A stretch of DNA of 64,000 nt from NCBI RefSeq assembly GCF_056712565.1, contig NZ_CM160072.1. One strand, 5' to 3'. Within the stretch, counting starts at the first letter, position 1; every line of letters begins with the position of its first letter. Position numbers: made by a program. Of this stretch, positions 54,217 through 60,200 are shown piece after piece.

Positions 54217-57200
54217 TTATCGTTCATGAGAAGCATAACGTAAAGGGAAGAGCTCGATTAGACGGCAGGATTTGTCAGGGGTTATGAACAAAATTCATAA
54301 ATCTGTTTGAGGGTTGAGATTAGTCGTGCAAGTTCGATATCCCCGGAATTTACAGTCCGATGAATAAAAATGAATGTCCATAAAAAATATATTGGTTTAT
54401 CCCGGCGTATATACTTACTTCGACGTACTCCCAATAGCAGTTAATTAAAGGCGGGTCATTATTATTCACTCTGAATAATGAATTATTCACTGCCCGCAGA
54501 GTAAGAAATATAACTTAAGTATCTATTTAATGACTTGCACAAAAAGCTAAATTTTTACCCATAAATAAAAATATAATCCCGCGCCCAACCACCTGATGAG
54601 TGGCTACAGACACTGGATATATTAGGTGGCGGTGTACTTTCTTACATAAAGGTATTTCCTTTTCTGTGGAAAAGGAAACCGGGAAATCCCCGGTTTTTCT
54701 GACAAGCAGACGCCATTATTTGTGTCTGCCTATGTTCGTTAATTCGTTCATCAGGAAATTATCTCAATGTCACGTTATAAAACAGACAATAAACAGCCAC
54801 GATTTCGTTATTCAGTTCTGGCCCGCTGCGTGGCGTGGGCAAATATCTCTGTTCAGGTTCTTTTTCCACTCGCTGTCACCTTTACGCCAGTAATGGCAGC
54901 ACGTGCGCAGCATGCGGTTCAGCCACGGTTGAGCATGGAAAATACTACGGTAACTGCTGATAATAACGTGGAGAAAAATGTCGCGTCGCTTGCCGCTAAT
55001 GCCGGGACATTTTTAAGCAGTCAGCCAGATAGCGATGCGACACGTAACTTTATTACCGGAATGGCCACCGCTAAAGCTAACCAGGAAATTCAGGAGTGGC
55101 TCGGGAAATACGGTACTGCGCGCGTCAAACTGAATGTCGATAAAAATTTCTCGCTGAAGGACTCTTCGCTGGAAATGCTTTATCCGATTTATGATACACC
55201 GACAAATATGTTGTTCACTCAGGGGGCAATACATCGTACCGACGATCGTACTCAGTCAAATATTGGTTTTGGCTGGCGTCATTTTTCAGAAAATGACTGG
55301 ATGGCGGGGGTGAATACTTTTATCGATCATGATTTATCCCGTAGTCATACCCGCATTGGTGTTGGTGCGGAATACTGGCGTGATTATTTGAAACTGAGCG
55401 CCAATGGTTATATCCGGGCTTCTGGCTGGAAAAAATCGCCGGATGTTGAGGATTATCAGGAACGCCCGGCGAATGGCTGGGATATTCGTGCTGAGGGCTA
55501 TTTACCTGCCTGGCCGCAGCTTGGCGCAAGCCTGATGTATGAACAGTATTATGGCGATGAAGTCGGGCTGTTTGGTAAAGATAAACGCCAGAAAGATCCA
55601 CATGCGATTACCGCTGAAGTGAATTACACGCCAGTGCCTCTTCTGACCCTGAGTGCCGGGCATAAGCAGGGCAAGAGTGGTGAGAATGACACTCGCTTTG
55701 GCCTGGAAGTTAATTATCGGATTGGCGAACCTCTGGAAAAACAACTCGATACAGACAGCATTCGCGAGCGTCGAATGCTGGCAGGCAGCCGCTATGACCT
55801 GGTTGAGCGTAATAACAATATCGTTCTTGAGTATCGCAAATCTGAAGTGATCCGTATTGCTCTGCCTGAGCGTATTGAAGGCAAGGGTGGCCAGACGGTT
55901 TCCCTGGGGCTTGTGGTCAGCAAAGCAACTCACGGTCTGAAAAATGTGCAATGGGAAGCGCCGTCTTTGCTGGCCGCAGGCGGAAAAATTACGGGGCAGG
56001 GCAATCAGTGGCAAGTGACGCTCCCGGCTTATCAGGCAGGCAAAGACAATTATTATGCGATTTCAGCGATTGCCTACGATAACAAAGGCAATGCCTCGAA
56101 ACGTGTGCAGACAGAAGTAGTTATTAGCGGAGCTGGTATGAGCGCCGATCGTACGGCGTTAACGCTTGACGGTCAGAGCCGTATTCAAATGCTTGCTAAC
56201 GGTAATGAGCAAAAGCCGCTGGTGCTGTCTCTGCGCGACGCCGAGGGCCAGCCAGTCACGGGCATGAAAGATCAGATCAAGACTGAACTAACCTTCAAAC
56301 CGGCTGGAAATATTGTGACTCGTACCCTGAAGGCCACTAAATCACAGGCAAAGCCAACACTGGGTGAGTTCACCGAAACTGAAGCAGGGGTGTATCAGTC
56401 TGTCTTTACTACCGGAACGCAGTCAGGTGAGGCAACGATTACTGTTAGCGTTGATGACATGAGCAAAACTGTCACTGCAGAACTGCGGGCCACGATGATG
56501 GATGTGTCAAACTCCACCCTGAGTGCTAACGAGCCGTCAGGTGATGTGGTTGCTGATGGTCAGCAAGCCTACACGCTGACACTGACAGCGGTGGACTCCG
56601 AGGGTAATCCGGTGACGGGAGAAGCCAGCCGCCTGCGACTTGTTCCGCAAGACACTAATGGTGTAACCGTTGGTGCCATTTCGGAAATAAAACCAGGGGT
56701 TTACAGCGCCACGGTTTCTTCGACCCGTGCCGGAAACGTTGTTGTGCGTGCCTTCAGCGAGCAGTATCAGCTGGGCACATTACAACAAACGCTGAAGTTT
56801 GTTGCCGGGCCGCTTGATGCAGCACATTCGTCCATCACACTGAATCCTGATAAACCGGTGGTTGGCGGTACAGTTACGGCAATCTGGACGGCAAAAGATG
56901 CTAATGACAACCCTGTAACTGGCCTCAATCCGGATGCACCGTCATTATCGGGCGCAGCTGCTGCTGGTTCTACGGCATCAGGCTGGACGGATAATGGCGA
57001 CGGGACCTGGACTGCGCAGATTTCTCTCGGCACTACGGCGGGTGAATTAGACGTTATGCCGAAGCTCAATGGGCAGGACGCGGCAGCAAATGCGGCAAAA
57101 GTAACCGTGGTGGCTGATGCATTATCTTCAAACCAGTCGAAAGTCTCTGTCGCAGAAGATCACGTAAAAGCCGGTGAAAGCACAACCGTAACGCTGGTGG

Positions 57201-60200
57201 CGAAAGATGCGCATGGCAACGCTATCAGTGGTCTTTCGTTGTCGGCAAGTTTGACGGGGACCGCCTCTGAAGGGGCGACCGTTTCCAGTTGGACCGAAAA
57301 AGGTGACGGTTCCTATGTTGCTACGTTAACTACAGGCGGAAAGACGGGCGAGCTTCGTGTCATGCCGCTCTTCAACGGCCAGCCTGCAGCCACCGAAGCC
57401 GCGCAGCTGACTGTTATTGCCGGAGAGATGTCATCAGCGAACTCTACGCTTGTTGCGGACAATAAAACTCCAACGGTTAAAACGACGACGGAACTCACCT
57501 TCACCATGAAGGATGCGTACGGGAATCCGGTCACCGGGCTGAAGCCAGATGCACCAGTGTTTAGTGGTGCCGCCAGCACGGGGAGTGAGCGTCCTTCAGC
57601 AGGAAACTGGACAGAGAAAGGTAATGGGGTCTACGTGTCGACCTTAACGCTGGGATCTGCCGCGGGTCAGTTGTCTGTGATGCCGCGAGTGAACGGCCAA
57701 AATGCCGTTGCTCAGCCACTGGTGCTGAATGTTGCAGGTGACGCATCTAAGGCTGAGATTCGTGATATGACAGTGAAGGTTAATAACCAACTGGCTAATG
57801 GACAGTCTGCTAACCAGATCACCCTGACCGTCGTGGACAGCTATGGTAACCCGTTGCAGGGGCAAGAAGTTACGCTGACTTTACCGCAGGGTGTGACCAG
57901 CAAGACGGGGAATACAGTAACAACCAATGCGGCAGGGAAAGTGGACATTGAGCTTATGTCAACGGTTGCAGGGGAACTTGAGATCGAGGCCTCGGTGAAA
58001 AACTCTCAGAAGACGGTCAAGGTGAAATTCAAGGCGGATTTCAGTACCGGTCAGGCGAGCCTGGAGGTAGACGCCGCTGCTCAAAAAGTGGCAAACGGCA
58101 AAGATGCCTTTACGCTGACGGCAACGGTTAAGGATCAATACGGCAACCTTCTTCCTGGCGCTGTGGTCGTCTTTAATCTGCCTCGGGGCGTCAAACCGCT
58201 TGCAGACGGTAATATCATGGTGAACGCCGACAAGGAGGGTAAAGCGGAACTGAAAGTGGTTTCCGTGACTGCCGGAACCTATGAGATCACGGCGTCAGCA
58301 GGAAATGACCAGCCTTCGAATGCGCAGTCTGTAACGTTTGTGGCTGATAAGACTACGGCGACCATCTCCAGTATTGAGGTGATTGGCAACCGTGCAGTGG
58401 CGGACGGCAAAACCAAACAGACGTATAAAGTTACGGTGACTGATGCCAATAACAACCTGCTGAAAGATAGCGAAGTGACGCTGACTGCCAGCCCGGAAAA
58501 TTTAGTTCTGACTCCCAATGGGACGGCGACAACGAATGAGCAAGGGCAGGCTATTTTCACCGCCACGACCACTGTCGCAGCGACATATACACTCACGGCG
58601 AAAGTGGAACAGGCCGACGGTCAGGAATCGACGAAAACTGCCGAATCTAAATTCGTCGCGGATGATAAAAACGCGGTGCTCGCTGCATCTCCAGAGCGTG
58701 TAGATTCTCTGGTGGCGGACGGGAAGACTACTGCAACACTGACGGTTACTCTGATGTCGGGTGTCAACCCCGTAGGAGGAACCATGTGGGTCGACATTGA
58801 GGCTCCGGAAGGGGTGACAGAGGCGGATTATCAGTTCCTGCCGTCGAAAAATGACCATTTCGCGAGCGGGAAAATCACGCGTACATTTAGTACCAACAAG
58901 CCAGGTACATACACATTCACATTCAACTCTTTGACATATGGAGGGTATGAAATGAAACCAGTGACTGTGACAATTAACGCCGTTCCTGCAGATACTGAAG
59001 GCGCTGAGGAGAAATAAAAACGACGATGTAATAAATAATAATGGCGTTGACATGCGCAGCGCCATTATTTACTGAATACCTACCCTGGCACCGATTAGAC
59101 GGTGGCAGGGTAGGGTAAATCTTATGTGATGGAGTTACAGGCTAAACCGGGCGAACGGGGATAAAAATTTCGCAAACAATGTTATTGCTATCAATTTCGA
59201 CGAAGTTTTCATTGTAATAAAATCGCTCAATATCACTGCCGTTCACTCTGGCTAACCCCCTGGCAGGTAATTCCATCAGATAGAGGTTTCGCGCCCATTC
59301 AGGGTAGTGCTCCCACTCACCTTCATAGCGGAAAGAGGCATACAGTCCTCGGTTAATTGTCCACTCTTTCGGCATCTCTGAATCGGTTTGTTTGCATACC
59401 GTACCGGCAAAAGTTTCAACTGTGAGCAAATCGACCGATTTTGTTGATGGTTCGAACGTGGAGACGAAATAGATATCCGTCTTAAAATTCTTCATACATC
59501 TGACTAAATGATGACGTCGCAGTTTGACTTCTTCATCCGGTAATTTATTCGACACTTCAATATCATATTTAAATGAATTGCCAAAAATAGGTGTCTCAGG
59601 AAAGTTGACTAATCTACACTCCGTCTTTTGCTGTTGACGTATTAAAAAAGAAGGGAAGATATTTGCGAGATCCCAATAATCACGGTGGCGGTATTCACGG
59701 GGAGAGCAGCCGAATAACTTTTTAAATTCGCGGCTGAATGACTGCTGTGAATCAAAATGCAAAGAGAGTGCAATATCAAGCATAGATTTCGCGGAGAGCC
59801 GGACAAGAATGGCGGCACGACAAAGCCTTCGTTTGCGAATGTATTCTCCCAAAGGCACATGCATGAAATTTCGGAACAGAAGCTGGATGTTGCGTCTGCT
59901 GTAGCCAGATTTCTGTGCGATATCTTCGATTGAAATAGGGTGCTCAAGATTGCACTCAATCCACTCCAGGAGCTGCTGTAGAATCTTCTGCCTGATCATC
60001 ACATACTCCGTTAATTCTTTGTCATATCGCACATTTTCGTTATGTCCTGGGCCCTAAGTGTATCAAAAACAGCAAGTCCCAAGGCAAAAGCACTGATAGC
60101 GCCTGCTTCATTGCCCCAAAAATAGAGAGGTTTCAGTCCTACATTATTAATGAATTTTTTGCATAAGTGATATCAAAATCCACATACTAATTTGAGGTTA

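Follow-up and report, generated by a model that had tools for sequence, protein, structure and literature searches.

The window analysed here is a 64,000-nucleotide (nt) stretch of DNA from NCBI RefSeq assembly GCF_056712565.1 (contig NZ_CM160072.1), and the gene under study in it is fdeC (also known as eaeH), which encodes an adhesin and occupies positions 54767–59017 on the plus strand. A sequence-only reading of the window had called an intact reading frame of 1,416 residues at this place, and the list of open reading frames (ORFs) and the translation both bear this out: the coding sequence begins with ATG, runs for 1,416 codons plus a stop, contains no internal stop codon and agrees with RefSeq. 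A 5.25-kb stretch around fdeC is 100% identical to the genome of Escherichia coli DSM 30083 (ATCC 11775; NZ_CP033092.2), where RefSeq gives the identical coordinates as fdeC, with the product 'inverse autotransporter adhesin FdeC' (WP_000092542.1). Residues 595–1008 of the translation are identical (414 of 414) to the crystallised FdeC fragment, PDB 4e9l. The name on the identical record and this match together confirm the proposed assignment of the gene to fdeC/eaeH. An annotated, unbroken fdeC is also present in independent complete assemblies with 99.7–99.8% identity, and a sequencing frameshift, which the sequence-only reading had named as the outcome that would overturn its call, is therefore no concern in public data.

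The gene is widespread. Among complete E. coli genomes, 5,131 of 5,426 match the fdeC query and 4,575 (about 84%) do so over at least 80% of its length; 19 matching places in the complete-genome collection lie on plasmid records and may be fdeC copies, other inverse autotransporters or mis-assigned replicons. Published surveys found FdeC in about 99% of extraintestinal pathogenic E. coli (ExPEC; PMC3324786) and a complete fdeC in 67% of 126 genomes (PMC6714894). The gene, its length and its pseudogene status in K-12 have been known since 2012 (Nesta et al.; PMC3324786), when FdeC was described as a protein of 1,416 residues with more than 91% identity among strains, and on these points the genome scan adds nothing new.

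The protein has the architecture of an inverse autotransporter, with an N-terminal β-barrel and a C-terminal passenger of the immunoglobulin (Ig) superfamily. The N-terminal region (residues 1–75; 54767–54991, plus strand) reads by eye as an extended signal-peptide-like segment, with a basic N terminus, a hydrophobic stretch at about residues 17–45 and then AARAQ, followed by a short periplasmic stretch. The β-barrel translocation domain (residues 76–357; 54992–55837, plus strand) is identified by the Pfam family IAT_beta (PF11924; residues 76–350, E = 4.9e-110, 367.9 bits against a cut-off of 22.3), which is the sole Pfam match in residues 1–357, and by solved homologs: residues 113–357 match the structures of invasin (4e1t; E = 4.6e-85) and intimin (4e1s; E = 9e-73).

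The remainder, at 55838–59014 on the plus strand, is a passenger of ten Ig-like domains, delimited by domain scans, self-comparison, a match to PDB 6tqd and the identity to 4e9l. Approximate limits, in residues, are D0 358–468, D1 469–583, D2 584–685, D3 686–788, D4 789–890, D5 891–999, D6 1000–1099, D7 1100–1201, D8 1202–1307 and D9 1308–1416. The domain annotation that had been suggested as a check on the repeated Ig-like domains did find Big_1, in four stretches of the full protein, together with nine of Invasin_D3; self-comparison and per-segment scans then resolved ten domains with a period of 300–320 nt, and this number equals the published count of ten Big domains (PMC4943183). Each of D1–D9 scores above the Pfam gathering score, with Invasin_D3 the best-scoring model for D1–D5 and Big_1 for D6–D9. 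D0 has no Pfam match and is similar to intimin D00 (6tqd; E = 3e-11, residues 358–474). Neither LysM nor Intimin_C or another C-terminal lectin-like domain was found by Pfam in the whole protein or in per-segment scans. Solved structures span homologs of the β-domain as well as D2–D5.

Domain repeats, deletions and a paralog

The sequence-only reading had also proposed that the internal repeats are a potential substrate for recombination-driven length variation. On this explanation, Ig-like repeats would be gained and lost by homologous recombination, in the manner of certain Gram-positive surface proteins with near-identical tandem repeats, and the existence of ten homologous domains with a regular period speaks for it. 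Against it, DNA identity between domains is about 40–51% overall, and even the closest domains (D3, D4 and D5) share 41–46% of their residues and about 50% of their nucleotides in a codon alignment guided by that of the proteins. Exact direct repeats, whether in the whole gene or between any two domains, reach at most 11 nt, a length expected by chance: 300 codon shuffles gave a mean longest repeat of 11.7 nt, and 286 of them reached 11 nt. Tandem Repeats Finder detected no tandem array in fdeC, and a seed-based repeat search over the gene returned just stretches of 15–47 nt with 60–93% identity. RecA-dependent recombination in E. coli requires roughly 25 nt or more of uninterrupted identity. 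Given that the longest exact repeat falls far below this length, the domain repeats are therefore not a plausible recombination substrate.

The length of the protein is consistent with this result. Our survey covered 120 listed cluster representatives and 30 complete genomes taken evenly down the match ranking. Among the listed representatives, the large protein clusters (17,949, 3,112, 3,064 and 195 members) have lengths of 1,416–1,418 residues, and 26 of the sampled genomes carry a full-length fdeC, none with a domain-sized insertion or deletion. Comparison of repeat number across strains, the check that had been recommended, thus returned a constant number of domains. Of the two features that mark surface proteins with recombination-driven repeat-number variation, namely near-identical tandem DNA repeats and strain differences in unit number, neither was found in fdeC.

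Rare in-frame internal deletions of 13–248 residues do occur in the gene, and two of their properties are in line with repeat recombination: some variants have sizes near one or two domains (95, 102, 105 and 196 residues), and one deletion (P0099; from D2+41 to D3+40) is roughly in register. However, most end points are out of register between domains, and the variants are singletons or tiny clusters, set against the thousands of members in each of the three largest full-length clusters. Moreover, the three resolved junctions, of which two come from the DNA of the carriers themselves (L007 and L008) and the third (P0106) from inference on the window allele, show microhomology of only 7–9 nt. 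The first of these is a recurrent deletion of 114 nt (38 residues) flanked on the plus strand by two copies of the 9-nt direct repeat GTCAGGTGA, the left at 56422–56430 and the right at 56536–56544. Both copies are kept in full-length alleles of the B2, O55:H7 and A types, and a single copy is left at the L007 junction. The same deletion is present on two allelic backgrounds, P0001, which apart from the deletion equals the window allele, and P0092 (91%), for which at least 23 contigs carry it. L008 has lost 285 nt flanked by TACCGGA in the parental allele type, and P0106 has lost 456 nt flanked by TAACGCTGG on the window allele. Pairs of 9-nt repeats in fdeC number 66, with 52 ± 10 expected. 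A search of complete genomes for carriers of the 114-nt deletion with a synthetic 120-nt junction, in which the tool joins the two half-matches across the intact 114 nt, shows no more than that no record matched at 99% or more. Taken together, these deletions have the hallmarks of slippage during replication, or of illegitimate recombination, at microhomologies that occur by chance, not of exchange between domain repeats.

We also noticed that seven deletion representatives (P0100–P0103, P0105, P0110 and P0120), in four size classes of 91–95, 107, 160 and 248 residues, share a left end near residues 454–458, at the boundary of D0 and D1 (window positions 56126–56130, codon ~454). One junction of this type has the 7-nt TACCGGA microhomology, which is found in A-type alleles and is absent from the window allele. 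The region around codon 454 may be a local deletion hot spot.

One protein cluster (P0090; 234 members) has the appearance of a two-domain expansion. Its members are 1,627–1,630 residues long and have twelve domains, the 213 extra residues making up two domains after D4, and they are named as E. marmotae, E. ruysiae or cryptic Escherichia. Identity of the extra domains to D3–D5 is no higher than 34–44%. The gene lies at 6001–10893 on three contigs of E. marmotae or cryptic Escherichia (L004–L006), not at the fdeC locus but between yddB–yddA–ydeM–ydeN-like genes (the last a ydeN-like sulfatase) and hipBA, and the DNA of the insert is absent from all 5,426 complete E. coli genomes. Location, absence from these genomes and membership together led us to reject the 1,630-residue form as a length allele of E. 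coli; furthermore, the same clades also hold an FdeC of about 1,407 residues, and the longer form is therefore a paralog. The paralog is 90–94% identical to FdeC in the N terminus, the β-domain and D0–D1, it has the same leader as fdeC, and its own convergent regulator of the AraC family with a GyrI-like domain is 82% identical to the one at the fdeC locus. The 1,630-residue gene is thus a paralogous cassette whose three parts, adhesin, leader and regulator, act like a single unit that is transposable or duplicated, and the apparent expansion belongs to another locus in other species.

From these observations we conclude that the idea of length variation by repeat recombination is largely refuted, and we hold it to be extremely unlikely for this gene. 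The ten domains are, on our reading, old duplications in which strains come to differ through point substitution and mosaic exchange between alleles rather than by gaining or losing repeat units, with occasional in-frame deletions arising through slippage at chance microhomologies of 7–9 nt.

Variation among lineages and gene loss

Where the gene does vary was examined in three full-length lineages, the B2 allele of the window, O55:H7 and the A type. They differ in length by just one 1-residue and one 2-residue indel, both in D9. Identity between lineages is 96–99% in the β-domain, D1, D2, D4 and D5, 87–93% in D3, D6 and D8, 75–94% in D7 and 79–84% in D9. The pattern is mosaic, D7 of the window allele being 75.5% identical to O55:H7 and 94.1% identical to the A type. 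The real variation is therefore mosaic sequence divergence, mainly in the distal domains D3, D6, D7 and D9; this pattern fits allelic exchange between strains and the reported point-variant alleles (PMC11143625), not intragenic repeat dynamics.

Loss of the gene takes other forms. As the sequence-only reading had stated, and as was already published (PMC3324786), the K-12 copy is truncated and disrupted. In MG1655 the eaeH pseudogene (b0297) is an 876-nt N-terminal remnant, 95% identical over the 876 nt, that stops at codon 292 inside the β-barrel. IS3 follows the remnant, and homology does not return before window position 59338, within the AraC-type gene that lies downstream and encodes a helix–turn–helix (HTH) regulator. 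The K-12 deletion amounts to roughly 3.7 kb, with the rest of eaeH and part of the neighbouring AraC-type gene lost and the latter truncated; insertion of IS3 plus deletion accounts for the loss. The remainder of the sampled complete genomes comprises one with an IS1 insertion, one with a 1.38-kb deletion, two of the K-12 type and one without the gene. The 1.38-kb deletion (G4/9) was considered as a repeat-to-repeat event and rejected: it spans from the β-barrel (residue ~268) to D3 (residue ~728) and frameshifts fdeC.

The leader of fdeC and its neighbourhood

Immediately upstream of fdeC lies a near-invariant, putative leader of 127 nt (54640–54766, plus strand), delimited by fold and alignment, with homologs at L004:5874–6009 and L012–L014:1074–1209. 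Mean column identity over eight Escherichia leaders, the paralog included, is 96%, which is above that of most of the coding sequence, and the sequence of the paralog farther upstream of the leader is divergent. A search of 79 inverse autotransporter loci from other species with nhmmer found the leader only in three Escherichia fdeC orthologs. Rfam, at the gathering threshold over 53000–61000 and at E ≤ 1 over 54200–54800, returned nothing but a spurious ribosomal RNA match (E = 0.15).

The leader is predicted to fold with a minimum free energy (MFE) of −42.9 kcal/mol (z = −5.39), and none of 200 shuffled sequences was as stable. In the MFE structure, three hairpins are predicted on the plus strand: H1 at 54656–54677, H2 at 54678–54694, followed by a U-run, and H3 at 54706–54729. 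A further predicted helix pairs 54695–54702 (UUUUCUGA) with 54751–54758 (UCAGGAAA), and the Shine–Dalgarno sequence AGGAA (54753–54757) lies inside it. The Shine–Dalgarno sequence is thus paired in the predicted fold with a U-run in the 5′ region, the arrangement of Shine–Dalgarno-sequestering elements of the fourU type. The computed mean probability that 54752–54756 are unpaired is 0.05–0.15 at 37 °C and rises from 0.12 at 25 °C to 0.20 at 45 °C, a modest predicted melting. Across the eight barely varying leaders, the anti-Shine–Dalgarno helix is invariant, and covariation amounts to one compensatory pair in H3; 121 of 500 shuffles equalled the observed pairing. Hairpin H2 with its five U residues resembles an intrinsic terminator. 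Farther upstream, a perfect −10-like hexamer, TATAAT (54572–54577, plus strand), is a candidate promoter element that has no good −35 and is also present at the paralog locus; a consensus promoter scan found no plus-strand promoter upstream of fdeC.

It is conceivable, although we consider it unlikely at present, that the leader is a conserved cis-regulatory RNA, a fourU-like element that sequesters the Shine–Dalgarno sequence and/or an attenuator formed by H2 and its U-run, which would contribute to the silence of fdeC at 37 °C and to its appearance from 39 °C upwards or upon contact with the host, and would travel with the adhesin and the AraC/GyrI regulator as one cassette, paralog included. 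Possible identities of the leader are a thermosensor, an attenuator or a small-RNA end, and its conservation could equally reflect protein-binding sites. None of the papers searched links fdeC to an RNA thermometer, and the temperature and contact regulation of FdeC has so far been ascribed to H-NS. If the proposal is true, the leader would offer a post-transcriptional explanation for temperature- and contact-dependent FdeC expression, and it is the sole item in this analysis with onward potential.

The regulator that accompanies the leader and the adhesin lies convergent to fdeC at 59142–59999 on the minus strand. It is a ykgA-type protein of 285 residues, annotated as a coding sequence by RefSeq, of the AraC family and with a GyrI-like ligand-binding domain (Pfam HTH_18, HTH_AraC and GyrI-like). 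At the fdeC locus and at that of the paralog alike, an AraC/GyrI regulator adjoins the adhesin, and in K-12 the two are truncated together; the 2024 FdeC paper makes no mention of ykgA. Between the two convergent genes, a gap of 124 nt contains two strong predicted hairpins, at 59037–59069 and 59079–59114 (MFE −50.4 kcal/mol, z = −5.24), which are probably bidirectional terminators; a simple terminator scan reported none 3′ of fdeC. An aldo/keto reductase and then rclCBA lie 3′ of the regulator. Upstream, a block of roughly 6.3 kb between ykgR and fdeC (about 47893–54201) encodes an NADH-flavin oxidoreductase, an alpha/beta hydrolase, two LysR regulators and two aldo/keto reductases. This variable 'fdeC cluster' was described and drawn by Nesta et al. 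in 2012 (PMC3324786), and in K-12 and A-type strains the reductase/LysR block is cut to a 90-nt pseudogene remnant.

Elsewhere in the window, vat, which encodes a vacuolating autotransporter toxin, and a MarR-type regulator are located at about 29283–35066 on the minus strand, in a small island by a tRNA-Thr gene with integrase and IS1 remnants; islands of this kind are classical in ExPEC, and its presence fits a B2 background. Genes for a type VI secretion tip (VgrG, a DUF2169 protein and a PAAR-like protein) are found at 1–3363 on the minus strand, beside ISAs1 remnants and a gene related to integrative and conjugative elements. At about 14575–17044, a remnant of the lateral flagellar (Flag-2) system, consisting of lafU and an N-terminally truncated flhA-like pseudogene, lies beside dinB–yafNOP.

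Function and comparison with known inverse autotransporters

We are highly confident that the region is an intact chromosomal fdeC (eaeH) of phylogroup-B2-type E. coli, encoding a type Ve inverse autotransporter adhesin with old domains that diverge by substitution and mosaic exchange, with deletions by slippage and with loss in K-12 through IS3 and deletion; none of the lines of evidence gathered contradicts the identification as FdeC. How the protein would work follows by analogy from homology and from published work on near-identical proteins. The long N-terminal signal peptide would route FdeC through the Sec pathway, residues ~76–357 would form a β-barrel in the outer membrane, inserted with the aid of the β-barrel assembly machinery and the translocation and assembly module (BAM/TAM), and the C-terminal passenger would leave through the barrel by hairpin export. 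The ten Ig-like domains would then build a long rod by which the protein attaches to collagens and epithelial cells and favours aggregation and biofilm formation. Expression would normally be silenced by H-NS and, according to published reports, induced by host contact, by temperatures of at least 39 °C or by loss of H-NS.

The published basis for this mechanism is as follows. FdeC binds collagens I, III, V and VI, and contact with host cells induces its expression (PMC3324786); binding to collagen and epithelial cells, with induced expression, has been published for strains IHE3034 and 536 only (PMC3324786), whereas surface exposure and dependence on TAM were demonstrated in CFT073 (PMC4943183). 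Expression of FdeC is temperature-dependent, and hundreds of point-variant alleles are known (PMC11143625). H-NS silencing and the 39 °C threshold come from Easton 2014, as cited by PMC11143625.

Four caveats apply to our reading. In a 2024 study of avian pathogenic E. coli, deletion of fdeC raised adhesion at 42 °C, so whether FdeC acts as a simple 'adhesin' depends on context. Secretion, surface display and collagen binding are carried over to the present protein from the FdeC of IHE3034, CFT073 and 536, by an analogy in which the crystallised region is 100% identical. The constancy of length is an observation on the listed representatives and sampled genomes named above. Finally, the signal peptide is a by-eye call on the translation.

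We also weighed the possibility that the reading frame is intact yet the gene is effectively silent or decaying in this strain, a cryptic relic that yields no working adhesin. FdeC is undetectable under standard laboratory conditions (PMC3324786), the upstream region is AT-rich (GC 0.42), H-NS silencing has been reported in work cited by PMC11143625, the ribosome-binding site is hidden in the predicted leader fold, and several lineages have inactivated the gene through IS3, IS1 or deletion. However, the 4.25-kb reading frame stays open in about 84% of complete genomes, the β-domain, D1, D2, D4 and D5 are conserved at the protein level across lineages to the degree given above, the leader is under strong constraint, and near-identical alleles have published expression, immunogenicity and in vivo phenotypes (PMC3324786). 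A silent relic is accordingly very unlikely, and we retain a functional FdeC adhesin as the reading of this locus. The adhesin is broadly conserved in E. coli and is a vaccine candidate; what matters for antigen design is the mosaic divergence in sequence of D3, D6, D7 and D9, not a change in repeat number, and for E. coli the domain count can be taken as a constant ten.

FdeC has two well-known relatives, intimin (EaeA) and Yersinia invasin, with which it shares type Ve secretion, a homologous β-barrel and an Ig-like rod; its D0 resembles intimin D00. This common plan of β-domain and Ig-like passenger raises the question of whether the protein might be an intimin or invasin proper, binding Tir or integrin, and the NCBIfam intimin and Inv models do match it strongly but partially, over the N-terminal ~420 residues. 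Yet every NCBIfam match is below its curated cut-off, and all intimin, invasin and Iat models fall far under it (intimin_all, 389 against 1,400 bits; the IatC N-terminal model, 646 against 2,400). In addition, the protein has neither LysM nor a C-terminal lectin-like domain, the window annotation holds no genes of the locus of enterocyte effacement (LEE) or for Tir, and both the RefSeq name and the identity to the crystallised fragment point to FdeC. We therefore rejected intimin or invasin proper as a vanishingly improbable assignment. FdeC differs from both of these proteins in having ten Ig-like domains and in lacking LysM and a C-type-lectin-like tip, and it binds collagen, not Tir or integrin (PMC3324786).

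Placement in the FdeC/EaeH group is supported by identity to characterised FdeC, a length of about 1,416 residues, ten Big domains, the lack of a lectin-like tip and the locus cluster, with reductases and a hydrolase upstream, regulators, and the ykgA-type AraC gene followed by rclCBA downstream. Among the listed cluster representatives, proteins named FdeC are 91–97% identical to the window protein. YeeJ and IatA–D (Goh et al. 2019; PMC6714894) have the same type of secretion and a Big-domain passenger, but they are distinct gene families at other loci, with lengths of 465–2,934 residues (PMC6714894). EaeH from H10407, an enterotoxigenic E. coli (ETEC) strain, occupies the orthologous locus and is reported to be 95% identical to FdeC (PMC3324786). 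Closest of all is the FdeC of the ExPEC strains IHE3034, CFT073 and 536 (Nesta et al. 2012; PMC3324786), which is the same gene, with the same 1,416 residues, the same architecture and the same chromosomal cluster; the present copy, from the type strain ATCC 11775 and with identity measured over residues 595–1008, shows no difference of substance from it.

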